The position numbers and the translations under genes were made by a program. This document shows, piece after piece, positions 23,116 to 55,690 of a DNA stretch of 64,000 nucleotides. The stretch is taken from IMG/VR virus record IMGVR_UViG_3300044212_000090. The stretch is one strand, 5' to 3'. The notes beneath the pieces were generated by a model that searched no databases, was not told the DNA's origin, and saw only the letters and a program-made list of their open reading frames with translations. Within the stretch, counting starts at the first letter, position 1; each line of letters starts with the position of its first letter. Source of the stretch: a virus (lineage: Duplodnaviria > Heunggongvirae > Uroviricota > Caudoviricetes).

Positions 23116-23361
23116 GCCGAATATGGGCACATGGGCCGTATGCAGTGACTAGTACCCATATGCGTTTTTCGTCGTTTTTCCAACGAAAATGGGCGAAACT
23201 GCATACAGAACATACAGGTGCATACGGGCCATATGCACCCCTCATCCCTACTGCCAGTAGGGCTTTAGCCCCCCTGCATATGAGCATATGGTTTATAGAG
23301 GCTTTGGCATGTTTTACCCCTATTTCGGGGTCTCTATAGGAAAAGCCGTATGCATATGCAG
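23116..23361. repeat. ~245-bp intergenic repeat, copy 1 (divergent promoter region; contains dyad CCCTACTG-C-CAGTAGGG)
   Basis: Near-identical to 28868..29111, reverse-complement of 42996..43232, related to 55440..55690. Confidence 0.8.
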
Positions 23362-23530
23362 TCTCGTGCTTTTCGGGGCGGAATCGACGGCGAGAACGAC
23401 GCCTCCTCTGTCGTCGCCCGCGTGCATCGCACATCCCAAATCGATGCCTCGCGAGGACGGACGCCGCAGACGCATAGCGGCGAGCTGAACACCAAGATCG
23501 GTCGAATCCACGATTGAAGGAGATAGACAA

Positions 23531-26500
23531 GTGAAACAAGGAAAGGCGACACGCGCCGCGGCGCTGGGAGCCACGCTGGCGATGCTGGCGGGAGCGGGGG
23601 CAGTATCTCCCGCCGCACTGGCGGACCCGCCCGCCCAGGATCAGCCGGGCGATTCGGGCTCGAACCCGGGCACGGGATCCACGCACACGGTGACGTTCGA
23701 TACCGGCGTGGACGGGCAGACCTACCCGCCGCAGACGGTCAACGACGCGAACGCCGCGGACCTGCCGACGCCCACGAACGGGGGGTCCCGCTTCGACGGC
23801 TGGTACAGCGGCGAAACGAGGTACGACGACAGCACCCCCATCACCCAGGATGTGACCCTCACGGCCCACTGGTCGAAGGCGGTCACAGTGACCGTCAAGT
23901 ACGGCAACGGCCAGGAGGACGTGAGCGTGCCTGCATTCGAGCACGACCTCTTCTCGCTCCCCGCCACGCTCGACCGCGCCGGCTATCGGTTCACCGGCTG
24001 GTCGCCCGACCCGACTACGCCGCTGAGCGAGGATACGACCTTCACGGCCCAGTGGGTCGCCGTGCATCAGGTGACGTTCGACTCCGACGGCGGCTCCGCC
24101 GTCGACTCCCCGCAGAGCGTGGACGACGGCACTCCCATCGCCAAGCCTGACGACCCGACGAAGGACGGACAGCTCTTCTCGGGCTGGACGCTCGCCTCTA
24201 CCGGCGCCCCCTACGACTTCAGCCAGCCGGTGACCGGCGACCTGTCGCTCAGGGCGACGTGGCGCGACGCCGTGCATCAGGTGACGTTCGATGTGAACGG
24301 CGGCACGAGCGTCGACGCGCAGTCCGTGCCCGACAGCCAGAGCGCCGCGAAGCCCGCCGACCCGACGAAGGCAGGCTCCCGCTTCGATGCGTGGCTGGAT
24401 GCCCACGGCGATCCGTACGACTTCAGCCACCCGGTGACCGGCGACGTGAGGCTGACCGCCAGGTGGGTGGCCCAGCACACGGTGACGTTCGACACCGGGG
24501 ATGGCGGCTCGCCCGTGCCCTCGCAGAGCGTGGACGACAAGGGCACCGCCGCGATGCCCGCCGACCCGACCCGCGACGGCTTCCGCTTCGACGGCTGGGA
24601 CTACGACTTCTCGGCTCCCGTGACCGGGGATGTGACCGTCACGGCCAAGTGGCATGCACTGCACCACACGGTGACCTTCGACACGGGCGGCGGCAGCGCC
24701 ATCGCGCCCAAGACCGTGGACGACGGCTCCGCCATCGGCGCGATGCCCGCCAATCCTACCCGCGCGGGCTACCGCTTCGCCGGCTGGCTCGGGCCCGACG
24801 GCAAGGCGTTCAACGCCTCGACGCCCATCACGGATGACACGACCATCACCGCCAAGTGGGTGGCCCAGGTCACGGTGACGTTCGACCCCGCGGGCGGGGC
24901 GCTGGCGGCTCCCGCCTCCCAGACCTTCGACGCGAACGCGAACGCCTCCAAGCCCGCCGACCCGACGAAGGAGGACAGCGAATTCCTCGGCTGGTTCGCG
25001 CCCGGCGCGAGCGCCCCGTTCGATTTCGCGAACACTCCGGTGACCGCCGACCTCACGCTCTCGGCCCGCTGGAAGGCGCTGCGCCACAAGGTGACGTTCG
25101 ACGCGAAGGGCGGCAGGGTCCCGGGGCTTCCGAGCTCCACGGTCATCGTGGCGACTGGAAGCCCCGTGTCCGCCCCCAACGTCCCGACGTTGGCTGCCCA
25201 CCGCTTCGATGGCTGGTACGGCCCGGACGGCGCCAAGTACGACTTCGCAACCCCCGTGGATGACGACATCACGCTCACGGCCCGCTGGACCGCGCTCTAC
25301 GACGTGACGTTCGACTCCGACGGCGGCTCGCAGGTGGCTTCGCAGACCGTGCCCGACGGCGAAACGATCAAGCCCGTCGCCGACCCGACCAAGGCTTGGA
25401 ACGCCTTCCGGGGCTGGACGCTCGACGGGCGGCCGTTCAACGCGACAACACCGATCACGAAGTCCATCACGCTCAAGGCGACGTGGGCCCCGGCTTCGCT
25501 GACCGTCGTCGCCTTCGGCGCCCTTCCCGCCGACGGCGTGAAGACGTTCAACAGCAACAAGCCGCTGCCCGCCTCGCTGACCGTCACCGACGGCACGGAC
25601 AGCTTCACGGCGCCGCAGGTCTCTCTTACGCACGACGACAGCCAGGCGTTCGGGCGGATCGTGGACACGGGCATCTACGCCCAGTCGGCGACGGGCGGAC
25701 AGCCGAGCGCGAACGTGACCGTGGTCTCCACCCAGGGCTCCGCGCTGAACGTGGACGGCATCGCCTTCGCCCGGAACGGCGACGGCACATGGTCCGCGAC
25801 CGTCTCCCGCGCGCTGGACAAGGGCAACGACTCCGCGAGCCGCACCATCGCCCTCTCGGACGGCACATCCGCCGACTGGACGTGGAACGCCCCCGCCGCG
25901 GCGGCGGGCTCGGGCTTCGTGGCCCGGCAGGGCACGGCGACGTTCGCGCTGCCCAACGGGCAGAGGGGCGTGGTGCACGTCAACGCGCAGCGCAGCTACG
26001 ACGCCTCGCTCTCGCTGTCCGTGAGCCGCACGGATGCGAGCGGCAATACGTCGGCCATCCCGGTCATGACCGGCACGGCCGACGCGCCGGGCGGCCCCTA
26101 CACGCTGGGCAAGCTGCCGCACTCCGCCATCTCGGATGCCTACCGCGTGTCCTACGCGGCCGGCCCCGACGTGACGGGCGTGGACGTCGCCCCGGGCCTG
26201 GGCGCGCACGGCGAGCGCACTTTCGCCGTGACCATCCATTACCTGGATGCGGCCGGTGCGGCGCAGACCTCGAACGCCTCCATCACGCTGCCCTTCGACG
26301 CGGCCTCCGTGCAGCCGAGCGCCCCGAGCTCCGCGGCCCTGAAGGCCATCCTGGTCAACGGGCAGCCGATCGCGGGCTGGAACCCCGACGTGCTCGACTA
26401 CACCATCGTCGCCCCGGACGCCTCCACCACGTATCTGGTGAGCCCGCAGGCGGGCGACGGGCAGAGCGTGGTCGCGGGCGACAGCGTGAAGTCCGCCTAC

Positions 26501-27451
26501 GCCACCAAGCAGCTGTGGACGGTGACCGGGCCGGACGGAGCGAAGCGCGCCTACTCGGTCACGGTCGTGCGCCCGCACACGACGCCCACCGCCGACGAGA
26601 AGTTCGTCCCCGCTCTCTCCAAGGACGTCGGCGGGAGCGAGGCCGCGCCGGATGCGACCTCCACGGCGCTCAGGTCCTACGGGTACGTGGACAAGGATGG
26701 CAAATACACGCCCGTCACGGACGGCTCGATGGTCATCCCCGACGGGGGGACGTTCGCCTACGAGACGTACGCAGGACAGGTCGCCAAGGTCACCCGCACG
26801 AAGGTCTCGGGCACCACGTGGAGCTACGACGTGGATGTGTTGAGCCCTGACGGGGCGCACGTGGCCCGCACCACCGTGAAGGCCACGTACGTCACCCCGG
26901 CCACGCACGCCGCGGCCCTCACGGGCGTCAAGTTCGACGGCGCGGCCCTGAAGGGCTTCGACCCGAACAGGCACGACTACACGGTGGGCGTGGACAACCC
27001 CGACCGCTACGTGATCACCCCGCTGTTCGACGCGATGGACGGCATGAGCGTGTCCGTGCGCAAGACGGGCCATACCGCCACGGTCACCGTGACCAGCGCG
27101 GACGGCCTGACGGTCGCGGTCTACACGTTCCACGTGACCACCCGCGAGCTCGCAGACGCCATCAACGGCGTGAAGGGCGCCGCCGCCGCGCTGACCGGGA
27201 ACGGGAGCGGCGATGCGCTTGCGCAGACCGGCGCGAAGCTCACGGTCGGCATGGTCGTCGGACTCGCCGCCGCCGCGATCCTCTGGGTCGCAGCGGGTGC
27301 CTCGCTGGCGCTTCGCCGCCATCTGAGGAAGTCCGAGGGCGAATCCGACGTGACGGACGAGGGCGCGCAGCCCGAGGCGGCGGGCGAAGAGCCTGAAGCC
27401 CCGGAGCCGGAGGTCCCGGACGAGAGTGCGGAAGGCGCACCGGAGGAGTAA
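23531..27451 (+). CDS. LAQTG-anchored cell-surface protein with multiple Listeria-Bacteroides (Flg_new) repeats
   Basis: GTG start, signal peptide, >10 repeats of VTFDxxGG...P.R.GY.F.GW, C-terminal LAQTG + TM helix + RRHLRK tail (sortase class-E type sorting signal). Confidence 0.8.
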   Translation: MKQGKATRAAALGATLAMLAGAGAVSPAALADPPAQDQPGDSGSNPGTGSTHTVTFDTGVDGQTYPPQTVNDANAADLPTPTNGGSRFDGWYSGETRYDDSTPITQDVTLTAHWSKAVTVTVKYGNGQEDVSVPAFEHDLFSLPATLDRAGYRFTGWSPDPTTPLSEDTTFTAQWVAVHQVTFDSDGGSAVDSPQSVDDGTPIAKPDDPTKDGQLFSGWTLASTGAPYDFSQPVTGDLSLRATWRDAVHQVTFDVNGGTSVDAQSVPDSQSAAKPADPTKAGSRFDAWLDAHGDPYDFSHPVTGDVRLTARWVAQHTVTFDTGDGGSPVPSQSVDDKGTAAMPADPTRDGFRFDGWDYDFSAPVTGDVTVTAKWHALHHTVTFDTGGGSAIAPKTVDDGSAIGAMPANPTRAGYRFAGWLGPDGKAFNASTPITDDTTITAKWVAQVTVTFDPAGGALAAPASQTFDANANASKPADPTKEDSEFLGWFAPGASAPFDFANTPVTADLTLSARWKALRHKVTFDAKGGRVPGLPSSTVIVATGSPVSAPNVPTLAAHRFDGWYGPDGAKYDFATPVDDDITLTARWTALYDVTFDSDGGSQVASQTVPDGETIKPVADPTKAWNAFRGWTLDGRPFNATTPITKSITLKATWAPASLTVVAFGALPADGVKTFNSNKPLPASLTVTDGTDSFTAPQVSLTHDDSQAFGRIVDTGIYAQSATGGQPSANVTVVSTQGSALNVDGIAFARNGDGTWSATVSRALDKGNDSASRTIALSDGTSADWTWNAPAAAAGSGFVARQGTATFALPNGQRGVVHVNAQRSYDASLSLSVSRTDASGNTSAIPVMTGTADAPGGPYTLGKLPHSAISDAYRVSYAAGPDVTGVDVAPGLGAHGERTFAVTIHYLDAAGAAQTSNASITLPFDAASVQPSAPSSAALKAILVNGQPIAGWNPDVLDYTIVAPDASTTYLVSPQAGDGQSVVAGDSVKSAYATKQLWTVTGPDGAKRAYSVTVVRPHTTPTADEKFVPALSKDVGGSEAAPDATSTALRSYGYVDKDGKYTPVTDGSMVIPDGGTFAYETYAGQVAKVTRTKVSGTTWSYDVDVLSPDGAHVARTTVKATYVTPATHAAALTGVKFDGAALKGFDPNRHDYTVGVDNPDRYVITPLFDAMDGMSVSVRKTGHTATVTVTSADGLTVAVYTFHVTTRELADAINGVKGAAAALTGNGSGDALAQTGAKLTVGMVVGLAAAAILWVAAGASLALRRHLRKSEGESDVTDEGAQPEAAGEEPEAPEPEVPDESAEGAPEE

Positions 27452-27466
27452 TCCACCAGAGACAAC

Positions 27467-27513
27467 GAAAAGCCCCGCAGCAAGCCCATATCGGGCCGCT
27501 GCGGGGCTTTTTT
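27467..27513 (+). terminator. rho-independent terminator
   Basis: AAAAGCCCCGCAGC...GCTGCGGGGCTTTTTT. Confidence 0.7.
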
Positions 27514-27523
27514 CGTATTCTGG

Positions 27524-27802
27524 CTAGTTCTCTTCGGGCGCCATGCCACCGGCCCTTACGCAGGCCGCCGCGGTCAGGGCGTTGAGCCTCGCCGCATCCC
27601 CCAGCCCCATGCCGGAGTTGGCCTGGGCGAACGCCTCGTCGAGAACGGCGCGGTCGGGCGCGGGGAGCGCGGAGACGATGGAGCGGGCGCGGGCGAACAG
27701 CCGCGCGTCGGATGCGGAGCGCTCGCGCAGATCCATGAGCCGGGCCCCGCCGAGCCTGTTCACCGCTCGGGCCGCATTGTCGATGTCTGCAGTGCTTGTC
27801 AT
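27524..27802 (-). CDS. hypothetical protein
   Basis: 92-aa ORF; GACGCATA-like motif 12 nt upstream of start. Confidence 0.45.
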   Translation of the reverse strand: MTSTADIDNAARAVNRLGGARLMDLRERSASDARLFARARSIVSALPAPDRAVLDEAFAQANSGMGLGDAARLNALTAAACVRAGGMAPEEN

Positions 27803-27843
27803 GACGGGCAGTATGCGTCAGATGCAGGCAATCCTCGCGCCTC

Positions 27844-28818: not shown

Positions 28819-28867
28819 GAGGGACGGCTATGCGGCGCCGAAAGAAGCGATTTGGTACTTTATTGCT

Positions 28868-29111
28868 CCGAATATGGGCACATGGGCCGTATGCAGTGAC
28901 TAGTACCCATATGCGTTTTTCGGCGTTTTTCCGCGAAAAACAGCCGAAACTGCATACAGAACATACGGGTGCATACGGGCCATATGCACCCCTCATCCCT
29001 ACTGCCAGTAGGGCTTTAGCCCCCCTGCATATGAGCATATGGTTTATAGAGGCTTTGGCATGTTTTACCCCTATTTCGGGGGTTCCATAGGAAAAGCCGT
29101 ATGCATATGCA
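28868..29111. repeat. ~245-bp intergenic repeat, copy 2
   Basis: Near-identical to copy 1; lies between divergent genes 27844..28818(-) and 29239..30609(+). Confidence 0.8.
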
Positions 29112-29238
29112 GTTCTGCCCTTTTCGGGGCCATATCCGCGAAAAAGAGGACGCTATCGCGTTCGCAGCCCACAGCTCTCGGAGAGGCCTCGCCCCTAATC
29201 GAGGCCATCCTCGCACCTTCCGACGCATACCGCCCTTC

Positions 29239-30609
29239 ATGACAGACACTCCCGAAGACTCTTTGGCATTCGACGCCGAGGCGATGGCGCGGCTCGACGA
29301 TCCGAACGCCGTCACGTTCCTGACAGGCAAGGCGGGCAGCGGCAAGAGCACGCTCATCCGCCACTGGCTTCGCACCTCGGCGCCCGCCAACACGCTGGTC
29401 GCGGCGCCCACGGGCATCGCGGCACTCAATGTGAACGGGGTCACGCTCCATCATCTCATCCACGCCAAGCCCGGCATCACCCCCGACGAGGCGGAGGGGC
29501 TGGGCCATCGCTGGAAGGGTTCGCCCTACAGCGACCTCGGCGCCCTGGTCGTCGACGAGATCAGCATGGTCCGCGCCGACCTCATGGACTGCCTGGATCG
29601 GTTCCTCAAGGCCGCGCGCGGCTCCACGCTGCCGTTCGGAGGCCTCAAGCTCGTGCTGGTGGGCGACCTGGCGCAGCTGCCCCCGGTGGTCACGCGCGAG
29701 GACGCGAAGGCGTTCGATGGCTCGATATGGCCCGGCCCGTGGTTCTTCCAGTCCCATGCGATGGCCGAGGTCATGAAGGGGCTGGACGTGGGACTGCGCG
29801 GCATCGAGCTCACGGAGATCCACCGCCAGAGCGACCCCGCGTTCATCGCGGCTCTGAACGCTCTGCGCGACGGGCGTCCGTCCCGCGGGTCGCTTGCGAC
29901 GCTCAACGCCCGCGTGGCGCCGATGGGCGCGGACTGCGGCATCGTGCTCGCGGCCACGAACCGGCGCGCGGACGTCATCAACGCCGCCATGCTGGCGCGC
30001 CTACCCGGACCATCCGACGTCTTCACGGCGCAGATCGGCGGCGAGTGGGCGAAGTCGCTGAGGCCCGCCCCCGAGCGCCTGGAGACGCGGCCCGGCATGC
30101 GGGTCATGATGCTCACGAACGATCAGGGGGGCCTGTGGGCGAATGGCTCGATGGGGGAGCTTCTTCGCGTCGAGGACGGCGTGGCTGAGATCAGGCTCGA
30201 CGACGGCAGCATCATCGAGGTCGGGCAGCACTCGTGGGAGGTCACCCGCCCTGTCGTGCGCGAGGTGGAGATGAACGACGGAGCGGGCGGCACGCGGAAG
30301 CGTAAACGGCTAGATTCGGTGGTCATCGGCTCCTACCGCCAGATGCCGTTCGCGCCCGGCTGGGCCGTGACCATCCACAAGTCGCAGGGCAAGAGCTTCG
30401 AGCGCTGCCGCATCGAGCTGCCGCCCGGCCCGCTGTTCGCCGCAGGGCAGGCGTACGTGGCCCTGAGCCGCGCCACGGGGCTGGACGGGCTGACCCTGAG
30501 CCGTCCGCTCTACCCCCGGGACGTCATCGCCGACCCCGCCGCGCTGGGCTTCCTGGAGGAGCTGCGCAAGGGCTTCCCGCAGCCGGCGGTGCAGGAAGGG
30601 CTGTTCTAG
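29239..30609 (+). CDS. PIF1/RecD-family (AAA_30/UvrD_C_2) DNA helicase
   Basis: Walker A GKAGSGKST, Walker B LVVDEISM, C-terminal VTIHKSQGKSFE and YVALSRA motifs. Confidence 0.8.
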   Translation: MTDTPEDSLAFDAEAMARLDDPNAVTFLTGKAGSGKSTLIRHWLRTSAPANTLVAAPTGIAALNVNGVTLHHLIHAKPGITPDEAEGLGHRWKGSPYSDLGALVVDEISMVRADLMDCLDRFLKAARGSTLPFGGLKLVLVGDLAQLPPVVTREDAKAFDGSIWPGPWFFQSHAMAEVMKGLDVGLRGIELTEIHRQSDPAFIAALNALRDGRPSRGSLATLNARVAPMGADCGIVLAATNRRADVINAAMLARLPGPSDVFTAQIGGEWAKSLRPAPERLETRPGMRVMMLTNDQGGLWANGSMGELLRVEDGVAEIRLDDGSIIEVGQHSWEVTRPVVREVEMNDGAGGTRKRKRLDSVVIGSYRQMPFAPGWAVTIHKSQGKSFERCRIELPPGPLFAAGQAYVALSRATGLDGLTLSRPLYPRDVIADPAALGFLEELRKGFPQPAVQEGLF

Positions 30610-30778
30610 TCGCAGAAATGCGAGAAACGCCCGTCTGCGGGCCTGACGTGCGCTGGTGGTACGGGATGTATCGCCTTTCGCATATCAGGCCCGCAGACAG
30701 GCGTTTCCGTTCGTCCTGCGGACATGTGTCCGTTTCCGCCGCGCCTCTCGAAGGGGGTGGCTTGTCTCCCTGTTTCGC

Positions 30779-31618: not shown

Positions 31619-31702
31619 GGGGGAGGATATGCGTCGGAGACGGAACAAGGGGCCTCCTGCGGAACGAATTCCGCAGGAGGCCCCTTGTTCCGATGAGTCC
31701 GA

Positions 31703-37037: not shown

Positions 37038-38636
37038 TCAGCCCCGGAAGAAGTCGCTGATGACGTTCGGCGTGCTCGTATCGAACCCCACGACGTCAAG
37101 CTGCCCGACGTCGGTCGGATCGGCTATCGAGAAGCCGCTGGAGGTCATGCCGACCACGGCGAGCCGTGCGTCGATGCCCGAGGCCCTGCGGTACTCGGCG
37201 AGCGCCTGCGTGGGCTTGATGTCGCCCGCGAAGGTCTCATTGTCGGTCAGGATTTCAAACGAATCGAACTCCTTGCCATGCTCCTTCGCCCAGACCATCG
37301 GCAGGGCGCAGTCGGTGGCCCCCATCGGCAGGCCGGAGATGGCGCAAAGATTGTCGTCGAGGCGGCGGCGCGGGGAGACGTCCAAGGGGGTCAGCTCCGC
37401 GCCCGTATTCCAGCCGAAGCTGTCCGCGCTCTTCGCGGTGAAGCCCACGATTTCATATTCGCGCTCTGACTTCGCGGTGACCATCGCCAGCGCGGCGGAT
37501 GCCTCGCGTGGCGTGATGGGCAGCCCCGCGATGGAGTCATAGCCCATCGAGCCGGAGATGTCCAGGGCCAGCAGCGTGCGCCTGCCGGTCGGCTCCACCG
37601 CGTCGAACGAGAGGTAGAACGCCTCGTCCAGCACATCGCAGATGCGATGGACCGGCGTCCATGTCAGCGAGCCCTTGAGGCCATGTCCGGAGGCGTACGT
37701 CTTCAGGGCCACGAGCAGGGCGAGCGGGTGCAGCCGCGCCCGCTTGATGGCCTCCGCATCGGTCAGGCGCTCAGCCACGCCGCCAAGCACGCCCAACTTG
37801 GTCAGCCGGGGGAGCTGGCGCATCAGGGCTCCCAGCGGCACGGAGTCGTTGTCCAGCAGCGCCCGCCAGACCTCGGGGGAGTTCAGGGCCTCGGAGGGCA
37901 GCGCCTCCCACGGAAGACGGGAGAATGCCCTGTCGGCCCGCAGGGCCGTCGCGAGGTCCTTGGGGACCATGCGCTGCGCCTCCTCAAACGCCCTGGTGAA
38001 GTCCGAGCCGCCCGTGCGGTGGGCCATCCAGTCGAGGATTGCCGCGGTGGCCTCGTCATCGGTCTTCGGGTGCGAGAGGCGCAGCAGATCGCGGTGGGTC
38101 CACCCGTCGCGCTGGCGGTACTTGACGGCCTGATACTCCAGTGCCGAGGCGTCGCGGGCGGTGTACCAGGACGCCACGGCGCGGCGAAGGGCGCGCCCCC
38201 AGCCTCGGAACTGCTCGGCGTAGGCCACGAACATGAACAGGTGCGTGGAGGTGCGGGCGACCTTCGGCAGCGCCTCAAGCGCGTAGGAGCGCCCCGCGTC
38301 GTCCGCGACGGAGGCCGCGACGGCGAGCGCGAAGAGCGCCGGGTTCTGGCGGGGCGCGCGCCCGTTCGCGGACACGTCCACGATGGCGTCCACCAGCGCT
38401 TGAGGTTCGGACTTCGCCAGCGCGAAGACGACCCCGGCGTTCTCGCGGGCGTATTCGGTCGGCTTGGCGTAGTAGGTGCCGCCGTCCACTCCGAGGATGA
38501 GGAAGCGATGCAGGCGCTTCATGTCGTCGACTGCGAATACGTAGCCGCCGGCGGAGTTCCTCGTCTCGTCGGCCCGGCCCGGCGTGCGCTCGGTCTGCGG
38601 GGTGCGGCGGGTGGATATGGTCTTCAGGGCGTCCAT
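37038..38636 (-). CDS. rsr: Ro60-like ribonucleoprotein Rsr (TROVE domain + vWA)
   Basis: ~530-aa product with long TROVE-like helical region and vWA MIDAS motif (LALDISGSMGY); start MDALKTIS taken inside the 783-aa frame whose 5' part overlaps the Y-RNA locus. Confidence 0.7.
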   Translation of the reverse strand: MDALKTISTRRTPQTERTPGRADETRNSAGGYVFAVDDMKRLHRFLILGVDGGTYYAKPTEYARENAGVVFALAKSEPQALVDAIVDVSANGRAPRQNPALFALAVAASVADDAGRSYALEALPKVARTSTHLFMFVAYAEQFRGWGRALRRAVASWYTARDASALEYQAVKYRQRDGWTHRDLLRLSHPKTDDEATAAILDWMAHRTGGSDFTRAFEEAQRMVPKDLATALRADRAFSRLPWEALPSEALNSPEVWRALLDNDSVPLGALMRQLPRLTKLGVLGGVAERLTDAEAIKRARLHPLALLVALKTYASGHGLKGSLTWTPVHRICDVLDEAFYLSFDAVEPTGRRTLLALDISGSMGYDSIAGLPITPREASAALAMVTAKSEREYEIVGFTAKSADSFGWNTGAELTPLDVSPRRRLDDNLCAISGLPMGATDCALPMVWAKEHGKEFDSFEILTDNETFAGDIKPTQALAEYRRASGIDARLAVVGMTSSGFSIADPTDVGQLDVVGFDTSTPNVISDFFRG

Positions 38637-38770: not shown

Positions 38771-38918
38771 GAAGAGAACGGCGGACATGTTGTGGAATCC
38801 GGAAAATACGCGCTCTGCCAACTGAGCTACACGGGCATGGAGCCCGTGGCGGGACTTGAACCCGCGACCTCGCCGTTACCAGTGGATAACCGGATTCCCC
38901 CGGCCCGCCATTCTCTTC
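38771..38918 (-). ncRNA. yrlA: YrlA-type bacterial Y RNA (Ro-binding-like terminal helix + permuted tRNA-like module)
   Basis: Termini pair as GAAGAGAAUGGCGG/CCGCCGUUCUCUUC and GGAAUCCGG/CCGGAUUCC around an internal loop. Core contains T-arm GCGGG-UUCAAGU-CCCGC, then an acceptor-like stem closed by a loop (CACGGGC-UCCAU-GCCCGUG), then D-arm GCUC-AGUUGG-CA-GAGC. Sits immediately upstream of rsr on the same strand. Confidence 0.6.
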
Positions 38919-42343: not shown

Positions 42344-42745
42344 CTACCTCGCCTCGAATCCGGGCACGACGTTCTCGGGCTTGAGGACGACCTTGTAGTG
42401 ATCGGGGCTCACATTGGCGGAGTCGACCTGCTCGACGAAGTACGTCACGTTGTCCGAGAGCCCGAGGAAATGCTTCTTGTACTGGTCGGGCCCGGTCTTG
42501 CAGGTGACCTCCAGCTGGTGGTCGTCGCGGTCGACGAGGATGGAGCAGAAGCCCTCGATGGAGAGCAGGTACTTGTCCGTGATCCCGTTGACGAAGACTA
42601 TCTTGCGGGCGACCTTGAAGTTGTCCGAGTCCTGCGAGAGGTTGTGCGATGCGGTATCCGCATCCGAGCACGCCGACAGGGAGAGCGCCGCGGCTATGGC
42701 GGCGAGCCCTGCGACGATGCGCTTGGGCTTGATGCGAATTGTCAT
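42344..42745 (-). CDS. lipoprotein
   Basis: MTIRIKPKRIVAGLAAIAAALSLSAC signal peptide with lipobox; GACGCATAT 8 nt upstream of ATG. Confidence 0.6.
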   Translation of the reverse strand: MTIRIKPKRIVAGLAAIAAALSLSACSDADTASHNLSQDSDNFKVARKIVFVNGITDKYLLSIEGFCSILVDRDDHQLEVTCKTGPDQYKKHFLGLSDNVTYFVEQVDSANVSPDHYKVVLKPENVVPGFEAR

Positions 42746-42995
42746 GCTCTCCATATGCGTCCCGGATGGGCGGGTATGATCGATTCCCGCGAGCGACAAG
42801 AGCATTAGGGATATGGGGCCGGACGAGCTGAAGGCTGCGGCGACAGAGAGCGAACAGGCGCGCGCCGCAGTGGACGCCGAGCGCCGGCGGCGATGGGATT
42901 CGTTCAAGGAAATCCCGAAAACGCCTTTCAAGAGCATCCTCGACTGGTCGCGGCGCGCCCGGCGTCCATTAACGGAATCCCCGTAAATCATCGAA

Positions 42996-43232
42996 CTGCA
43001 TATGCATACGGCTTTTCCTATAGAGACCCTGAAACAGGGCTAAATCACACTAAAGCCCCTATAAACCATATGCTCATATGCAGGGGGGCTAAAGCCCTAC
43101 TGGCAGTAGGGATGAGGGGTGCATATGGCCCGTATGCACCCGTATGTTCTGTATGCAGTTTCGCCCATTTTCGGCGGAAAAACGCCGAAAAACGCATACG
43201 GGTGCTAGCCGGCGCATACGGCGCATATGCCT
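42996..43232. repeat. ~245-bp intergenic repeat, copy 3 (inverted orientation)
   Basis: Reverse complement of copies 1/2 with a diverged distal end; between divergent genes 42344..42745(-) and 43227..43703(+). Confidence 0.75.
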
Positions 43233-43703
43233 CTTTCTGATGCGATGCGCCGCATCTCCCGACGCACACAGCGGGGCATGACACTGCTCAATGATTATCT
43301 GAAGCCCCTGGAGGAGTCCGGCGTTCTGGAGCCCTCCGAGCTCGCGGAGCGCATCCTCGCAGGCCTTTCCAGGCCCGACGCCAAGTCGTTGCTCGCCGAG
43401 GTGCTGCCCGGAGCCATCGCCACGGCCCAGTCCCGCGAGCGCATGCGCCCCTCGCGCACGCCGACCATGACCAGCGGCAAGGTCGCGGCCCAGCGGGCCA
43501 TGTTCTCGCCGCTGTTCCATGTGGTCATTCCACTGGCCTCCGGGCGCAAGCTGCTCGCCGACTGCGTGAAGGGCGATCTGCTCGAATACGCGGAGACCTT
43601 GCGCACGCACGCCCGCATGACGATGGCGAAGGCGGACGAGTACGAGCGCATGGCGAACGAGCTGCCGGACGATACGACCACAGTCATCGAGGCGTTCGGA
43701 TAG
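43227..43703 (+). CDS. hypothetical protein (start may be the internal ATG at ~43278)
   Basis: 158-aa ORF overlapping the end of the repeat. Confidence 0.4.
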   Translation: MPLSDAMRRISRRTQRGMTLLNDYLKPLEESGVLEPSELAERILAGLSRPDAKSLLAEVLPGAIATAQSRERMRPSRTPTMTSGKVAAQRAMFSPLFHVVIPLASGRKLLADCVKGDLLEYAETLRTHARMTMAKADEYERMANELPDDTTTVIEAFG

Positions 43704-43959
43704 GCGGGGTGCATGCAGGAGAGCGAGGAAGCGGCGATTCCTCCCCGCCCACAAGGGGCGGAGTTTCCTCGCCGCAAATCTCATGAAGCCCCCGCGCGAA
43801 GCCCAAGCATCTCTCGGACAACCAAGAAAAAGACGGCTTCGCGCGGGGCCTTTTTCCTCAAGCGGGACGCATCAGAGAGGCAACGAGGGCGCTCAGAGGT
43901 CGTCCGAACAGCCAATATGCTGGCAGCGCCCTCGCCCAACCTATAGAAGGAGAACCCAT

Positions 43960-44790
43960 ATGAAGACTCTAGATGACCCGGCTCTGTCTAAGCTCGCGGA
44001 CATGCTCGATGATCTGGAAGGCGAGCGCAAGGCCACTGCGAACCGCGTGCGCATCCTCACCGCCGCCACGCCCGACGAGGACGGCGTCATGCGAGGCTTC
44101 GCGCTGTCCGCCGACGATCCGTCCGTAAGGACCATGGAGGCGCTCAACGAGGGGCTCTCCAAGTTGGAGCACGAGGCGGTCCTCCAGCTCCAGCGGGTCA
44201 TGCGCAAGCACCCGCTCGGCGCATGGCAGAGGGCGCAGAAGGGCGTGGGGGAGAAGACCCTCGCCCGTCTGCTCGGAGCCATCGGAGACCCGTACATCCG
44301 CCGCGACGACGGGCAGCCGCGCACCGTGCACCAGCTCTGGGCGCTGTGCGGGCTCCACGTCATCGAGGGACGCGCTGCAAAGCGCGCGAAGGGCGTGCAG
44401 TGCAATTGGAGCACCATCGCCAAGACCCGGGCCTACTTGATTTCCGAGGCCATCGTCAAGGCCGGCGTGCGCACCGCCGAGGACGGCTCCAAGATCGCCC
44501 TCTCGCCCTACGCGCAGGCGTATCTCGACCGCCGCGCCCACACCGCGCTCACGCATCCCGAGGCGAGCGCAGCGGACGAGAGGAAGGGTCTGGGCTGGAC
44601 GAAGGCCCACGCCCACGCGGATGCCATGCGCATCGTCTCCAAGACCTTCCTGAAGGCCCTGTGGCGCGAGGCCAAGCGATTGCACGAGGAGGAGGGCGGG
44701 GGCGACGGCTCGCTTCTTCTGGTAATCGATGGAGTGAAAGACTCCGACTTCGCCGCGCTTAAGAGCGAAGCGTCGCTTGCGAGCGCCTGA
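43960..44790 (+). CDS. hypothetical protein (possible replication/relaxation-associated protein; speculative)
   Basis: 276-aa ORF with AAGGAGA RBS, convergent with the FtsK-like translocase. Confidence 0.45.
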   Translation: MKTLDDPALSKLADMLDDLEGERKATANRVRILTAATPDEDGVMRGFALSADDPSVRTMEALNEGLSKLEHEAVLQLQRVMRKHPLGAWQRAQKGVGEKTLARLLGAIGDPYIRRDDGQPRTVHQLWALCGLHVIEGRAAKRAKGVQCNWSTIAKTRAYLISEAIVKAGVRTAEDGSKIALSPYAQAYLDRRAHTALTHPEASAADERKGLGWTKAHAHADAMRIVSKTFLKALWREAKRLHEEEGGGDGSLLLVIDGVKDSDFAALKSEASLASA

Positions 44791-46726: not shown

Positions 46727-46931
46727 GCTGCGCTGCTATGCGAAGAGAGGAGCGCCGCCTGTCGACGCGCGGTCGTTCGCATCATCCATGGGCGGCGCTC
46801 CTGCCGTGGCATATGCGTCAGAAGGAAGAAAGGGCGCCGGCGGCGCACGTGTGGTTGTGCGCGCCACTTCCCGGGCCTTGCGGCGCTCTGCGATATCCGA
46901 TGCGTCCCGCACGGGACGCATATGCCCCTTC

Positions 46932-51053: not shown

Positions 51054-51258
51054 TCTCCTGCCTTTCGTTGAGCGTGATGGCGTCCCATCGCGTGTATATG
51101 GCTGTCACCTGGCCAGACGGAGCGACCTTGCCGCCCGCCCGGTCGACGATGCAGAGCATCGTGCGTTTCTCGTTCGGCTCCGCCGCGTACGCATCGGCGG
51201 GCCATTCGCTGTAGTCGCCGCCGACGTAGACGCGGTGGAATCTGCGAATGGCTTTCAT
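51046..51258 (-). CDS. small hypothetical protein
   Basis: 70-aa ORF. Confidence 0.4.
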   Translation of the reverse strand: MKAIRRFHRVYVGGDYSEWPADAYAAEPNEKRTMLCIVDRAGGKVAPSGQVTAIYTRWDAITLNERQENV

Positions 51259-51713
51259 CGTCGCGCCGTCCCCTCGAATTCGAGGTTATTGACGTACAGG
51301 GTGGCCTGCCCGTCGTGGATGCGGAGTTTTCCGGCGCTGGGACGACCGTCCGGGAGATGCAGCCAGACTCGCTGCACGCTGGCGTCCGTGCACCCGTCCC
51401 ATCCTTCGAGGCCGGTGACATGGTAGGCGTCCTCGACCTTCGAGATGTTGGTTTCCGCGATGCGCTTGTTCTCCGGCTGCCGGATGATGCCGCGCACGCC
51501 GAAGAACAATCCCGCGAGGACTCCAACGCCCGCTAGGGCGGCGATGATGGAACGAATGGCGATTCTTCCTTTATGCGAGTCGAACGCAAGCTCAGGCAGA
51601 ATCATGAACAGTATCATCCCGGCGAATGCGATGAAGAACGCGGTCGCCAGTCCCGGCGCTATCGCATTGGCGGCGGATGCCGTCTGCTGAATTTCGGCTG
51701 ATGCGAGCGTCAT
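51255..51713 (-). CDS. membrane protein
   Basis: Two N-terminal TM helices then soluble domain. Confidence 0.5.
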   Translation of the reverse strand: MTLASAEIQQTASAANAIAPGLATAFFIAFAGMILFMILPELAFDSHKGRIAIRSIIAALAGVGVLAGLFFGVRGIIRQPENKRIAETNISKVEDAYHVTGLEGWDGCTDASVQRVWLHLPDGRPSAGKLRIHDGQATLYVNNLEFEGTARR

Positions 51714-51970
51714 GACTTGGCCTCCGCATCCGGATACCGCTGCGCGAATTCCGCATCGTCGAAGAGGAGTATGGATTCGATCTCGCCATACGGGATCATC
51801 GTGAGCACGCCCACCTCCGGGCCTTCATGGGACATGAAGTTCCTGAAGCAGGCGGGGTCCTCCACGATGCGACCTATGGGGCGGAAAGACAGGAAGTGTT
51901 CGTCCTCGCCGTATCCGTCCGCGACGAGGACGCGGCTGCAGCTTCCGACATTGACGAGGATCCTCATTCC
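51710..51970 (-). CDS. small hypothetical protein
   Basis: Start MRILVNVG within 146-aa frame. Confidence 0.4.
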   Translation of the reverse strand, partial: GMRILVNVGSCSRVLVADGYGEDEHFLSFRPIGRIVEDPACFRNFMSHEGPEVGVLTMIPYGEIESILLFDDAEFAQRYPDAEAKS

Positions 51971-52500
51971 GTCCCCTTCGGCGCTCCGGGCAGCAGCCGC
52001 TGCATCACGCGGCCGAAGGATTCGAGCGCGAACGGGCGGGACTCCGCGCCGCCCGCGAGCTTGACGGTCACGCCGCCCCTGCGGCCCGGCTTCCACGCCA
52101 CGCCGTCGGGGATGGCCCCGTCGTGCGCGGCGATGGACTTGGACAGCCACGCGGGGGAGGTGACCTCGGGCACCGGATAGTTCACCGTGATGACGCTCGG
52201 GCGTCCGCCCACGGTGATGTCGTGCTCCACGAGGAAGTCCCCGAACGCAAGCGGGTCGGACACCTCGTATCTGCCCTCGCCGTCCTTGGACACGCTGATG
52301 GTCGCGGAGGGAGCGCCGTCGAACACGGCGTCCTCGCTCTCGGAGTCCGCATCGTGCGTGCGCAGATACTCGGCCTTCGCGGCCTTGAACGCGCCGTCGA
52401 TGCGCTTGGAGAGGATCTGCATGCCCGCCATCGCGGCGCGCAGCTGGTCCTCGGGCAGGTCGGAGAAGTCGAACTCGTCCGCCTTGGTCTTCTTGGTCAT
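51964..52500 (-). CDS. hypothetical protein (weak resemblance to phage Gp157/Gam-like proteins; speculative)
   Basis: Start MTKKTKADEFDF; 178 aa. Confidence 0.4.
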   Translation of the reverse strand: MTKKTKADEFDFSDLPEDQLRAAMAGMQILSKRIDGAFKAAKAEYLRTHDADSESEDAVFDGAPSATISVSKDGEGRYEVSDPLAFGDFLVEHDITVGGRPSVITVNYPVPEVTSPAWLSKSIAAHDGAIPDGVAWKPGRRGGVTVKLAGGAESRPFALESFGRVMQRLLPGAPKGTE

Positions 52501-52559
52501 GGCCTTTCCTTTCATTGGGCAGAATCGCCTATGATCGCCATATGCGTCCCATTCGCGCA

Positions 52560-53140
52560 ATCCTGTGACGCATATGCGTATCCAGCGCGCGACGTCAACG
52601 TTCTCCATAAAGACGATGGCGGCGGCAGAAGCCCCTTACTGCTTCGTAACGGACCGGGCCAGCGCCGCGCGCATTGCTTTCCTTCGGGACGCACACGAAA
52701 CACTGCGCGGCGTCAACGTCGCTGCATCGAATGGTTTCAACAGCATTCGGCGCGGAGCGATGGCGGGGAGCAGCCCGATCGATCACCTCGGCAAGCCACG
52801 ACCCCCGCCAGCGCCGCGCCTTTTCCTCTTATCGGACGCATAGCGCGTATCGCACGGCGTCAACGTCGCCGCCGCGGATCCTTTGAGACAGTCCGTGGGC
52901 GGATCGATGGCGGGGATAGGACGATTTAGACAACCTTTTTCGTCTGCTGAAGCCCCGCCAGCGCCGTGCATTTTCCTTATCGGACGCATAGGCATTATCA
53001 GAACGCGGCGTCAACGCCGCTGCCCTGCGGGCTTTACGGGATCATTCACTCGCGGGATTGCAGAACGATGGCGGGCGAGGATGGTCTGATAACCTTCCAC
53101 CCGATGACCCCGCCAGCGCCGCGCTCTTCCTCTTTTCAGA
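52560..53140. repeat. tandem array of four degenerate ~140-bp repeats
   Basis: Each unit carries GCGGCGTCAACG(T/C)CGC ... GATGGCGGG ... CCCCGCCAGCGCCG(C/T)GC ... TT(A)TCGGACGCATAG. Confidence 0.7.
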
Positions 53141-53831
53141 ATTCCGGCTCGTCCGGGTCTGCGATGAACGAGCCGCGCACCTCCCTGATGCCCGCCAGCC
53201 TCTTCCAGACATCCTCGGGGATGTCCACTCGCTCGCCGTTCGGCCCGTCCACGCGCTTCACGCCCCAGATGCCCACCAGCGCCGCGTCGTGCAGCGCGTG
53301 GGAGAAGTCCGGGCCGCTCACGGGCAGCGCTCCGGGGATGGCCCAGGCGTTGAACGGGGCATCTAGGGGATCGAGCGTGGGGCGCGGATGCTCGGGGGGC
53401 TGGTATCGCTTCGGCGCGACGGCGAGCAGCGCATGCGCGAACTCGACCGGCATCTCGCGGGCGACGTGCGCGACTGTCTCAAGGGACAGGGCGCGGGCCA
53501 TGGCCTCGTCGCCGTCCATGCCCCGGACGTGCAGCGCCGAGGCGAATGCGGCGGCCGTGGCGAACGGCATTCCGTTCAGGCCCAGCGCCCCGTAGCAAGA
53601 GCGCAGCCACGACCATGACTCGCCGTCGTCCTCAGGCACGCGACAGGGAACATCCGGCAGGAACTCGAAGTACGGGCGCCAACTCAGCTCGCCCTCATGC
53701 ATCGCCGCATCCCGCTCGCGCCCGTGGCCCGGCTGCTCCGCGCGATGCATGGCGATGGCGGCGTCCGCCGCGCGGAGCAGCCCGTCGTCGGCGGACGAGA
53801 GCGAGAAGGCATTGAAGTCTATGGTCAGCAT
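53136..53831 (-). CDS. hypothetical protein
   Basis: Start MLTIDFNAF 10 nt after GACGCATA motif. Confidence 0.45.
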   Translation of the reverse strand: MLTIDFNAFSLSSADDGLLRAADAAIAMHRAEQPGHGRERDAAMHEGELSWRPYFEFLPDVPCRVPEDDGESWSWLRSCYGALGLNGMPFATAAAFASALHVRGMDGDEAMARALSLETVAHVAREMPVEFAHALLAVAPKRYQPPEHPRPTLDPLDAPFNAWAIPGALPVSGPDFSHALHDAALVGIWGVKRVDGPNGERVDIPEDVWKRLAGIREVRGSFIADPDEPEF

Positions 53832-53908
53832 GGGCCCCGGTATGCGTCGGAAGACGCCAGCGGCCCGTGCAGGAGACATCCCGCACGGGCCGCTCTGTTC
53901 GATGTCTT

Positions 53909-55108
53909 CTAGGCTTCCTGCTCCTCCATGCTCACGTCGATGTAGCCGTCCTGCGCGTGGTAGTCATGCATCGCATCGACGTCATAGGAGGTGTACTGCT
54001 CTCCGGCCTCGCGGCACAGCCGCATGGCGCGGCGGGTCTCTTTCGAGGGCACGAGCATATCCGTCTGCGCCCCCGTCAGCTCCTTGCCCGCGTCGTAGCG
54101 GCGCTGCACGTCGTCGAAGACGGCCTGTATCTGCGCATCGGTGGCGGAGCCGCCGAGCTCGGAGACGGCGGCACGACGCGCACGCCCCTCTGGGGAATTG
54201 ACCCCTCGGACAATCGCATCATGCATGCCCGGAGTCGCGTACGCCCTGCCCTTCGGCGGATGGACGGTGATGTGGGCCTGCCAGCCGGTGCCGTAGTCGT
54301 CGGTGCGGCAGCTGACCTTGTAATCCGCCGGTATCTCGCCGCGCCTCTGGAGGGCCTTGATGTCGCGCCGCATGCCTTTGACCCGCTCGGCGGGGGAGAG
54401 ATGCGAGTCGTAGCGCCCGCCCGTGAAGGCCGTGCCGCCGGTCTGGCCCACGGTGGTCGTCCCCGGCTTGATGGGGTTGGGGATGCCGGAAAGCTCTCCC
54501 TTGATGTAGTGCGCGGCATCGTCCGCGTTTGTGAAATGCCTGGAATCCGCGTCGTTCCAGTAATCCTTGTCATCCTCGTGCACCTCGACGGAGCACGCCC
54601 CGCCCAGATGCTCGACGGCCACCAGATGCGTGCCGTCGCCCTTGTCGAAGAAGCGCCTGAAGTCGGTGCCCGCCCGGCGGGAGCCGTCCTCCCTGAGGCC
54701 GAGCTCCGCGAAATCATCCGGCGGCGCTTCGATGGGGCGGGAGCTTCCCCCCAGCTGGACCGCGATGTAGGTCGCCGCCTCGAACGCGGTTGCGAAGTGG
54801 TTGGAGTTCACGGCGTTCTGGTAGTCGTCATCGTCTGCCGTGCGCAGCTCGACATCGCAGCTCCCGTCCGCGTTATCGGTGGCCCACAGCTGCTCGCCGT
54901 CTCCCTTGGCGAAGGACCGCCTGAGCTGGTTGCCGCTATTCCAGACATCCTCCGCTTCGAGGCCATACTCCTCGAAGACGTCCTGCGGCCCCTGTGCTGC
55001 GGATGCACCGAGGCTCGGCAGGTCGCCTGCGCCCGCGTTGCCCTTGCTGTCAAACTCGCCGCCCGTGCTTGCGGGCGATCCTTTCGGTTTTCTTGCCTGA
55101 TTGCTCAT
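53909..55108 (-). CDS. hypothetical protein with conserved N-terminal motif (family member 3) and two internal ~55-aa repeats
   Basis: MSNQARKPKG...FDSKGNAGAGDLPSLG N-terminus; repeats FxKGDG..L.A......C.VE...DDDDY.N...S.HF..A..AA.YI. Confidence 0.5.
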   Translation of the reverse strand: MSNQARKPKGSPASTGGEFDSKGNAGAGDLPSLGASAAQGPQDVFEEYGLEAEDVWNSGNQLRRSFAKGDGEQLWATDNADGSCDVELRTADDDDYQNAVNSNHFATAFEAATYIAVQLGGSSRPIEAPPDDFAELGLREDGSRRAGTDFRRFFDKGDGTHLVAVEHLGGACSVEVHEDDKDYWNDADSRHFTNADDAAHYIKGELSGIPNPIKPGTTTVGQTGGTAFTGGRYDSHLSPAERVKGMRRDIKALQRRGEIPADYKVSCRTDDYGTGWQAHITVHPPKGRAYATPGMHDAIVRGVNSPEGRARRAAVSELGGSATDAQIQAVFDDVQRRYDAGKELTGAQTDMLVPSKETRRAMRLCREAGEQYTSYDVDAMHDYHAQDGYIDVSMEEQEA

Positions 55109-55116
55109 GATGCCCT

Positions 55117-55398
55117 CTATGCGAACCGGAGCTGGCGATACGGCCCGTACGCCTCGATGAGGCTGGCGGGCACCACGTCCAAACGGGCCAAGCGATTGCG
55201 CTCCGATATCCATGTGACATGGGGCATCTCCGCTTCGCGGTAGAGGCCGGGCGCCAGATGCTTCGCGTTCCCCTCTTCATGCCGGGCGACGACCAGCTCG
55301 GTGCGGTCGCCCTCGGCGAGGTAGAGGTGTCCGTCCGGAGTGCGGTAGGCGCGCTGGTGGGTGTTGCGGATGAGATAGGGAGTCGGGTAGGTCTTCAT
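55117..55398 (-). CDS. hypothetical protein
   Basis: 93-aa ORF with normal composition. Confidence 0.45.
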   Translation of the reverse strand: MKTYPTPYLIRNTHQRAYRTPDGHLYLAEGDRTELVVARHEEGNAKHLAPGLYREAEMPHVTWISERNRLARLDVVPASLIEAYGPYRQLRFA

Positions 55399-55439
55399 GT
55401 CCCGAGGAATGCGTCCTGCAGCAGAATCGCTTCGAGCAG

Positions 55440-55690
55440 GGCAGGCATGCCGTCCTATGGCTTTCCTAAGAGGACCCCCGAAAACCCCCTATATATCCTA
55501 TTATCCCCTATAATCCATAGGACGGTATGTATAGGGGGTTTAATACTTACTCGCAGTAGGGCTCAGGGCGTCCCTATGGCCCATAGGACACCGTATGATC
55601 CATAGGACGTTTCCGCTGTTTTCGAAGCCGAAAAGCCGCAAAACGTCCTATGGATCATACGGCGTCCTTTCGCGCGCATGCCGCTTTTCG
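55440..55690. repeat. divergent variant of the ~245-bp intergenic repeat (copy 4)
   Basis: Same architecture (CTATGG/CCATAG blocks, TACTCGCAGTAGGG dyad-like core) between divergent genes 55117..55398(-) and 55900..56199(+). Confidence 0.55.

Follow-up and report, generated by a model that had tools for sequence, protein, structure and literature searches.

The virus record IMGVR_UViG_3300044212_000090 (hereafter the window, meaning the whole 64,000-nucleotide stretch of DNA analysed) contains four copies, c1 to c4, of a cassette of about 250 bp that is packed with short repeated words and always lies between two divergently oriented genes. The sequence points to a conjugative element of a gut actinobacterium as the source of this DNA. 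We tentatively interpret the cassette as a repeat-array operator, or upstream control region, for an element-encoded protein, whose copies would be kept uniform by gene conversion, and we rate this interpretation at somewhat less than an even chance. No description of such a cassette was found in the literature searched.

Repeat detection over the window retrieved a direct pair of 300 nt with 88% identity (23112-23411 and 28863-29162) as well as 253-nt inverted matches to 42979-43231, from 23126-23378 at 90% and from 28877-29129 at 88% identity. By BLAST, c1 is 93% identical to c2 and 91% identical to c3 (88-93% overall among c1-c3), and c4 matches at about 70% over 150 nt; a four-way alignment showed that c4 is colinear with the other three along the entire unit, at about 60-70% identity. 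The original prediction of four copies, two direct, one inverted and one diverged, was confirmed by these three approaches in both coordinates and main features. The GC content of the cassettes is 0.49-0.52 versus 0.66 for the window. According to a rough gene map, about 16 of 68 gene junctions are divergent, and all four copies are found at such junctions; the copies themselves are of mixed orientation (c1 and c2 on the plus strand, c3 and c4 on the minus strand). The claim that every copy fills a divergent gap therefore stands for the placement (4/4) but not for the filling, since 3-220 nt of flank separate the cassette from the adjoining genes on each side and carry a separate start-associated motif. 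Likewise, its restriction to divergent junctions holds within the window but not in the relative L020, where two more copies lie between co-directional genes.

The dominant feature of the cassette is a 9-bp word, TGCATAYGG, with its complement CCRTATGCA, rather than the central dyad. Its core CATAYG occurs 13-15 times per cassette, that is, at 52.8 per kb in c1-c3 versus 0.89 per kb elsewhere in the window (an enrichment of about 60-fold); c1 has 13 copies, whereas 2000 shuffles averaged 0.29 and never exceeded 4. Neighbouring words of the same orientation are 8-10 bp apart from start to start in all three cassette types (c1-c3, c4 and a sister cassette of Bifidobacterium longum described below). 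Tandem runs such as CTGCATACAG-AACATACGGG-TGCATACGGG occur together with inverted pairs such as GTGCATACGG-G-CCATATGCAC, which forms a 21-bp near-palindrome in the repeat run of c1 and has equivalent runs in c2 and c3. Between the word clusters, T5 and A4 tracts are phased at about 10 bp, and these same tracts build a small hairpin that is perfect in c3 only. At the centre lies the dyad CCCTACTG-N-CAGTAGGG, exact in c1-c3 and with 3 mismatches in c4 (4 matches versus 0.11 expected), which was not found in the window outside the four cassettes. The perfect dyad first proposed for each copy, with a variant in the fourth, is accordingly exact three times and degenerate once. Placing the emphasis on an operator dyad and CATATG blocks was justified as regards the palindrome and the density of operator-like sites, but it is the 9-bp array that forms the chief feature. 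As the words occur in both orientations, each cassette can fold so that a long hairpin stands on either side of the central dyad, and the consensus fold comprises three hairpins with 69 pairs. One repeat of c1-c3, AACATACGG, has no pairing partner yet is retained.

Two other explanations of the cassette sequence were tried and rejected. Although c1-c3 are traversed by about 100 codons without a stop, this stretch has a GC content of 0.49-0.52, lacks a start context and is not conserved in c4, and is not considered protein-coding. A known RNA family was likewise discarded, as no Rfam 15 match was obtained with the whole window at gathering thresholds or with c1, c2 and c3 at E values up to 1.

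The diverged copy c4 retains the layout of the others with a different word. At most corresponding positions, and in both orientations, GTCCTATGG / CCATAGGAC replaces TGCATAYGG / CCRTATGCA, while two positions retain the CATACGG form. CCTATGG occurs 6 times in c4 versus 0.03 in shuffles, and the equivalent of the c1 repeat run reads GTCCTATGG-G-CCATAGGGAC. Such a coherent change of sites fits a specific binding protein and agrees with the early idea of a site-specific regulator; as part of the operator interpretation, and with the same reserve, c4 may represent a second specificity class. The swap is expected under both a binding protein with altered specificity and maintained hairpins, and does not discriminate between them.

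The promoters likely lie outside the cassettes. A search on both strands for sigma-70-like -35/-10 pairs with 16-18-nt spacing returned 0 sites in c1, c3 and c4, whereas every cassette is flanked, at 3-220 nt, by two outward-facing copies of the 8-mer GACGCATA or one-mismatch variants of it. On these grounds the cassette would be located upstream of the likely promoters, and its original description as a bidirectional promoter was not supported, the flanking 8-mer being the likely promoter signal. The window has 33 occurrences of GACGCATA, split 17 to 16 between the two strands and nearly always aimed at a gene, and GACGCATA-N9-ATG occurs 14 times versus 0.01 expected. With one mismatch and N8-N10 spacing allowed, about 28 plausible gene starts bear the motif (30 matches, two of them dubious); the spacer between motif and start codon contains no ribosome-binding sequence. 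Examples are found at 1874, 13571-13587, 19547, 29222, 46915 and 63500, and the motif is also seen in L001, L111 and L113. We infer from its position that GACGCATA is the promoter-proximal signal of the element, mostly for leaderless mRNAs. Cappable-seq mapping has shown ordinary -35/TATAAT promoters in Bifidobacterium (PMC4782308), so this signal is probably element-specific. It also stands ahead of a tRNA cluster (234; tRNA-Gln at 295), the adhesin leader and non-coding stem-loops (55693; 52835, 52983). Divergent gaps of 35 nt consist of two back-to-back GACGCATA copies, at 13561/13597 in the window and between the exonuclease and helicase genes of the relative L111. Since the motif alone serves these gaps, the cassette would be an add-on to working promoters rather than a promoter itself. 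Three tandem units of about 148 bp were also observed at 52681-53023 (intergenic region 52608-53136), of which at least the last two hold CTTATCGGACGCATAG, i.e., the start motif lacking a downstream start codon; the units may serve as reiterated promoters for non-coding transcripts.

Table. Coordinates of the cassettes, their internal features and the associated motifs (window positions unless a relative is named).
Feature	Position	Strand	Description
Cassette copy c1	23112..23385	+	Core 23116-23378; repeat detection, BLAST, alignment
Cassette copy c2	28863..29130	+	Repeat detection, BLAST, alignment
Cassette copy c3	42979..43236	-	Inverted relative to c1 and c2; repeat detection, BLAST, alignment
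Cassette copy c4, diverged variant	55440..55690	-	Four-way alignment, BLAST
Repeat run of c1	23196..23240	+	Three tandem CATAC cores 10 bp apart, then inverted CATATG
Small hairpin with phased T/A tracts, c1	23166..23189		TTTTCGTCG-TTTTTC-CAACGAAAA
Small hairpin with phased T/A tracts, c2	28916-28940		
Small hairpin with phased T/A tracts, c3	43168-43191		
Small hairpin with phased T/A tracts, c4	within 55613-55640		
Central 17-bp palindrome, c1	23246..23262		Perfect, CCCTACTGCCAGTAGGG
Central 17-bp palindrome, c2	28997-29013		Perfect, CCCTACTGCCAGTAGGG
Central 17-bp palindrome, c3	43095-43111		Perfect, CCCTACTGCCAGTAGGG
Central 17-bp palindrome, c4	55545-55561		Degenerate
Long hairpin of c4	55585..55668		28-nt arms, 96% complementary, 28 nt between; made of inverted repeats
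Second hairpin of c4	55446..55529		18-nt arms, 89% complementary, 48 nt between
GACGCATA left of c1	23018..23025	-	9 nt before ATG 23008
GACGCATA right of c1	23469..23476	+	Ahead of adhesin leader; adhesin GTG 23531 has its own ribosome-binding site
Variant GCCGCATA left of c2	28829..28836	-	10 nt before ATG 28818
GACGCATA right of c2	29222..29229	+	9 nt before PIF1-helicase start 29239
GACGCATA left of c3	42754..42761	-	8 nt before ATG 42745, probable start of VG64-domain gene
Variant GACGCACA right of c3	43261..43268	+	9 nt before ATG 43278 (141-aa gene upstream of tasA)
Variant GACGCATT left of c4	55408..55415	-	9 nt before ATG 55398
GACGCATA right of c4	55693..55700	+	No start codon after; stem-loop at about 55713-55786 instead
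CTTTACAATATTGTAAAG palindrome	L013 4340-4357		B. longum cassette
CTTTACAATATTGTAAAG palindrome	L014 619-667		B. longum cassette
CTTTACAATATTGTAAAG palindrome	L016 3024-3041		B. longum cassette
CTTTACAATATTGTAAAG palindrome	L019 8977-8994		B. longum cassette

The number of cassettes varies between near-identical elements. L020, a metagenome contig 98% identical to the window, contains an extra segment of 1.05 kb at the position corresponding to 27822/27827 of the window, and it is within this segment that its two additional copies reside. One of them bears the left-flank sequence of c2 and the other its right-flank sequence, which indicates segmental duplication rather than transposition. An alignment of nine copies, those of the relative included, revealed that the left third and the small hairpin each exist in two variants with a mosaic distribution, orthologous copies differing between the two elements; this mosaic points to gene conversion between copies. 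Short-read contigs with the flanking genes end inside the cassette, as did all contigs inspected for a c2-c3 inversion.

A sister cassette was found in a more distant relative. The nearest relative of the helicase adjoining c2 (59% identity) is encoded by a 187-kb B. longum contig whose other products include a 1382-aa VirB4-like AAA_10 protein and a prim-pol protein and which, on account of these two genes, is likely a conjugative element of the type IV secretion kind. At least six copies of a 330-bp cassette are present in this contig and one in a second B. longum contig, all 90-95% identical to one another. The B. longum cassette cannot be aligned to that of the window, yet it is built in the same way: 11 GTATGCA words (versus 0.04 in shuffles) form tandem runs with 8-10 bp spacing as well as inverted pairs, together with phased A5 tracts and an A/T-rich inverted repeat, and GACGCATAC-N9-ATG lies just outside. 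One edge of four copies carries one or two perfect 18-bp palindromes, CTTTACAATATTGTAAAG, which look like classical dimeric-repressor operators and may be analogous to the central dyad of the window cassette. Its neighbours include an exonuclease, a restriction-modification module, TnpB, a helicase, a prim-pol protein, an RNA ligase and IS607, at junctions that are partly divergent and partly not. In L113, a human gut relative whose helicase is 56% identical, comparison with L001b showed that the words are conserved islands at the same positions amid diverged spacers. The inner inverted repeat of L113 is mismatched while the word cores are kept, which favours sequence recognition on the duplex over a pure hairpin structure. 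The view of a cassette reused in the control regions of several mobile-element operons is supported by these comparisons, the related element bearing the VirB4-like ATPase and prim-pol genes. Scans of viral and metagenome collections, and of a genome collection without the host genome, for exact patterns of the cassette core gave no match, BLAST searches of phages and plasmids with the cassette or with 20 kb of the window returned nothing useful, and a helicase search of the genome collection yielded only matches of at most 43% identity from unrelated phyla. A trace of rearrangement was also noted in L001, where a 131-nt mid-helicase fragment (1296-1426 versus 6757-6887, 92% identical) directly follows the first B. 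longum cassette, ahead of the inserted restriction-modification/TnpB module.

Several of the genes that flank the cassettes were redefined. The PIF1-family helicase gene to the right of c2 starts at 29239, not at 29101 as initially given; this correction is based on products on record in other assemblies, which include a 456-aa product but not the 502-aa form. To the left of c3, the supposed lipoprotein is a Phage_VG64-domain protein whose start is probably at 42745, since the N-terminal extension has non-coding-like codon statistics. The membrane-protein gene formerly assigned to the right of c4 (open reading frame (ORF) 55740-56600) is arginine-rich nonsense and was rejected as a gene; the true gene begins at or after 55849. 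No DNA-binding domain was detected in the flanking genes by Pfam, PHROGs and NCBIfam searches. The three regulator candidates put forward at the outset are indeed helix-turn-helix proteins, but nothing ties any of them to the cassette. The operon starting at c1 includes tandem paralogues without family match (21297-21773 and 21877-22314, both on the minus strand, 40% identical), which are speculative candidates for binding the two repeat classes.

The region to the right of c3 contains an RNA-guided system. The gene at 43960-44790 (+) encodes a TasA-type TIGR-associated protein (NCBIfam NF052498, E 3.9e-49, 167.5 bits versus a cut-off of 100; also matching PDB chain 9mty) and is preceded by a conserved partner gene (43278-43703, phrog_4604). 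No relatives of the Tas protein or of a 324-aa protein were found among viral contigs. Homologous tas loci contain stem-loop guide arrays in the order CUU, stem, CCA, N9, CG...CCCA, N9, CG, stem (PMC12045711; bioRxiv 10.64898/2026.09.09.750476), and clear arrays were found in the homologue loci L106, L108 (Collinsella) and L109, some of them inside the tas gene. The same unit scan revealed four good tigRNA-like units in the window, at about 5552-5606 (+), 43786-43852 (+), 43883-43935 (+) and 55809-55863 (-), and none in the cassettes. They have the form stem, CCA, N8-9, loop consensus CGNACNNCCA, N9, CG, stem; two are directly upstream of tasA and two are dispersed, one of these beside c4. Their spacers have no target within the window, even with 4 mismatches of 17-18 allowed. 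The stem-loop at 55713-55786 (+) has a 15-nt stem, CCCCCGCGCGAAGCC, identical to that of the unit at 43786-43852, with a longer interior that is imperfectly tigRNA-like. Further long stem-loops at 30624-30707 and 46737-46813, with interiors of 26-31 nt, are located at or just past gene ends; they are not cassette-like and were not scored as tigRNA units. At 38782-38894 (-) there is a YrlA-like Y RNA, which matches Rfam RF02553 with 42.3 bits (E 6e-7), short of the gathering score; a Ro60/TROVE-vWA gene (37038-38636, -) follows it closely downstream. This Ro60 module is absent from L020 and L022 and present in L021 and L023, and is consequently variable cargo.

Elsewhere in the window, the ORF at 5649-6272 (+) is a chimera in which the N-terminal catalytic domain of a serine recombinase, at residues 11-122, is followed by an antirestriction C-terminus resembling ArdA; it is probably what a deletion left behind. 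An anti-defence region is suggested by this ORF in combination with genes for four DNA methyltransferases and a type I specificity subunit (1892-2845, 6415-9470, 12614-14376). Three otherwise unrelated proteins (3899-3979, 20743-20830 and 60646-60726 (-)) share the N-terminal peptide M(S/T)xQPRKPNGQ(Y/F)DFDPxAGAxDLPSLN, the coding DNA of which was also detected as an 82-nt inverted repeat of 79% identity; it may be a common targeting or secretion tag.

Under the operator interpretation, the cassette would be a docking scaffold on double-stranded DNA for a sequence-specific binding protein encoded by the element. The 9-bp words would be bound cooperatively along one face of a bent duplex, with tandem runs placed one helical turn apart and phased A/T tracts bending the DNA, while the 17-bp palindrome may be the site of a second, dimeric regulator. 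Set between two outward-facing start signals, the cassette would be the upstream region that two divergent transcription units have in common, and a protein bound to the array, which probably wraps or loops the DNA, would switch the two units jointly, whether by repression or by activation. One protein acting at every copy would co-regulate the helicase, nuclease, VG64, TasA and surface-protein operons, whereas c4 would answer to a paralogous binder, or one of altered specificity, and so define a second, separate control circuit. Gene conversion and segmental duplication would keep the copies alike. A bolder version, which we consider unlikely, is that GACGCATA and the cassette make up a portable gene-control system that a family of conjugative elements of actinobacteria keeps for itself. 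In this version every gene would bear the minimal start signal of the element, and a self-propagating cassette with at least two specificities per element would be copied between back-to-back start signals to bring new cargo operons under one binder. The cassette may then be read both as a hairpin, on the single strand that enters, and as an operator, once the DNA is double-stranded.

A number of observations weigh against the operator interpretation. The hairpins are very stable, with a foldback excess in single-strand DNA folds of all three cassette types relative to shuffles (z -5.5 for c2, -9.4 for c4 and -11.0 for the B. longum cassette); the three-hairpin consensus contains about ten compensatory pairs between c4 and the other copies, and the small hairpin shows two more in its variants GGCG/CGCC versus GTTG/CAAC, so that a role for the structure, on single-stranded DNA or RNA, is conceivable. 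In the first rival explanation, the strand that enters by conjugation would fold at the cassette into two or three long hairpins, which would act either as a priming site for synthesis of the complementary strand (single-strand origin) or as a single-strand promoter of early genes in the manner of Frpo/ssi. The VirB4-like ATPase of the related element makes single-stranded transfer plausible, multiple copies stand upstream of DNA-metabolism genes, and orphan methyltransferases abound in the window, which with its ArdA remnant recalls the leading regions that carry anti-defence genes (PMC11541004). Nevertheless, no -35/-10 hexamer pair exists in the stems of c1, c3 and c4, and copies are in both orientations with genes on both strands, while Frpo-driven genes are all on the transferred strand (PMC11541004). 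Nor would a hairpin need the same 9-mer in every stem, tandem spacing of about 10 bp or the retention of the unpaired repeat in c1-c3, and L113 keeps the repeat cores rather than perfect pairing. Most of the ten compensatory pairs are accounted for by the coherent word change in c4. As for the small hairpin, the compensatory difference described originally does exist, but it appears only after copies from the 98%-identical relative are added, and mismatch-bearing recombinant copies break the pairing. We regard a single-strand function as rather improbable. There are further objections to the operator interpretation. L111 and L112 have no cassette at the helicase junction, which makes it an optional addition; window and B. 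longum cassettes have no binder family in common among their neighbours, the helicase being the only shared one; and whole cassettes, spacers included, are 88-95% identical within a genome, more than operators need. Recent duplication, gene conversion or a selfish repeat would account for this identity just as well. A palindromic repeat that is selfish or neutral, similar to miniature inverted-repeat transposable elements or to ERIC and Correia repeats, could have spread by duplication and gene conversion into the insertion-tolerant gaps between back-to-back promoters with no dedicated function. Presence/absence polymorphism (the two extra copies of L020, the missing ones of L111 and L112), whole-length identity within a genome against no alignable similarity between genera, the mosaic of two variants indicating exchange between copies, and the assemblies that break at the cassette would all be expected. 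However, the copies end at different points and lack both well-defined terminal inverted repeats and target-site duplications at their flanks, no transposase is associated with them, and the extra copies of L020, which carry the c2 flank, represent a segmental duplication. The architecture of repeat positions, A-tracts and palindrome is kept over three sequence-unrelated versions and accompanied by the coherent swap in c4, which implies selection on the sites. A repeat without function is unlikely, although a selfish or recombinational component may be present, as it is compatible with the copy-number variation between near-identical elements and with segment exchange.

Two further explanations assign the cassette to other machinery. 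Repeat clusters of a replication system, i.e., origins or copy-control sites bound by a helicase- or primase-type initiator, have parallels in the origins of staphylococcal pathogenicity islands, in ori/crr of phage P4 and in the extra repeat clusters of plasmids P1 and F, and specificity variants are typical of initiator/repeat pairs. Repeats do flank A/T-rich bent DNA, c2 and one B. longum copy are directly upstream of a PIF1 helicase, and another B. longum copy is beside a prim-pol/DUF5906 protein. Yet each element has four to seven near-identical copies within tens of kb, where one origin per replicon would be expected, no prim-pol initiator was seen in the window, other copies adjoin unrelated genes (adhesin, RNA ligase, restriction-modification genes, IS607) and the A/T-rich stretch is short in the window-type cassette; we regard this explanation as very unlikely. 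The notion that the cassette is part of the TIGR-TasA system beside c3, as a guide-RNA array or as the DNA target of guides, has been largely refuted and retains hardly any probability. It was suggested by the TasA-type gene about 730 nt from c3, by the tigRNA-like units near c3 and c4, by inverted 9-mer pairs that superficially resemble dual-spacer targets, and by reports that nuclease-free Tas proteins are RNA-guided repressors, with a B. longum TasA known (bioRxiv 10.64898/2026.09.09.750476). The unit architecture is, however, clear in homologous loci and at the four other window sites and absent from the cassettes, whose 88-93% identity leaves no room for variable spacers; the four spacer pairs are without a target in the window; TasA homologue loci lack such cassettes; and no tas gene is near c1 or c2. 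Two recombination systems were also tried and rejected: recombination at the dyad by a serine recombinase (a single resolvase-like ORF exists, 5649-6272, and it comprises a truncated N-terminal domain with an ArdA-like tail; the dyad centre is moreover odd-length) and an integron attC or other site-specific recombination site (the window tyrosine recombinase scores 15.8 bits versus the 265 cut-off of the integron-integrase model, and the copies occur in both orientations).

If the operator interpretation is correct, large conjugative elements of gut Bifidobacterium and related actinobacteria would place many operons under one or two regulators through duplication of an entire 250-330-bp cassette instead of evolving single operators, and the operons so wired would comprise replication and repair genes, surface proteins and the RNA-guided TasA system. 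The cassettes explain the fixed breakpoints in metagenome assemblies of these elements. Two probe types with different repeats, along with culturable B. longum strains bearing the sister cassette, provide experimental handles toward a master regulator. The element-wide 8-mer at a fixed distance from the start codon is probably a more general feature, unlike the usual Bifidobacterium promoter; together with the dispersed TasA guide units, it may merit as much attention as the cassette.

Repeat arrays of comparable design are known from plasmids. In presumed mode of action the cassette comes closest to the omega arrays, ParR/parC and the Rco operators discussed here, and in its distribution across the genome it recalls stoperators and start-associated sequences. 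In the omega heptad arrays of pSM19035 and the ParR/parC system of R1, repeats of 7-11 bp are bound cooperatively by a small dimeric protein, regulate several operons in parallel and can act as a centromere. The window cassettes likewise combine direct and inverted short repeats about one helical turn apart, in presumed promoter regions and at several sites per element, but their array belongs to a 250-330-bp unit conserved over its full length, with phased A-tracts and an extra palindrome, in 4-7 copies; moreover, no ribbon-helix-helix or partition gene is linked to it and the promoters apparently lie outside the array. Short motifs repeated across one actinobacterial mobile genome and tied to gene starts are also found in mycobacteriophages, as the stoperators of L5, which are single 13-bp sites, and as the start-associated sequences (SAS/ESAS) of Cluster K, in which SAS include the ribosome-binding site. 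The cassettes differ from stoperators in being multi-site units of 250 bp, while GACGCATA-N9-ATG resembles SAS in its fixed distance to the start codon but includes no ribosome-binding site and also precedes tRNA and non-coding loci. The conjugative plasmid pLS20 of Gram-positive bacteria offers another parallel, as the Rco operators OI and OII form a DNA loop at the divergent Pc/Pr promoters (PMC4207663). In pLS20, repeated binding sites are clustered in a divergent promoter region, controlling conjugation and establishment genes (PMC4207663), but there is one such switch, whereas the whole region is here reused at several junctions and accompanied by a putative second specificity class. Frpo/ssi sequences are also repeated, long imperfect hairpins of a few hundred nt upstream of early or anti-defence genes of conjugative elements; they hold -35/-10 hexamers in their stem, with all copies and genes on the transferred strand of plasmid leading regions (PMC11541004), unlike the cassettes, which lack hexamers, occur in both orientations between divergent genes and draw their stems from one repeated 9-mer. 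TIGR arrays likewise consist of palindromic stem-loops located in the non-coding DNA of such elements (PMC12045711; bioRxiv 10.64898/2026.09.09.750476), but the cassettes have neither box C/D-spacer units nor variable spacers. The cassette differs from all of these systems in being a long, fully conserved unit that is reused 4-7 times, has two putative co-resident specificities and is set between element-specific start motifs.

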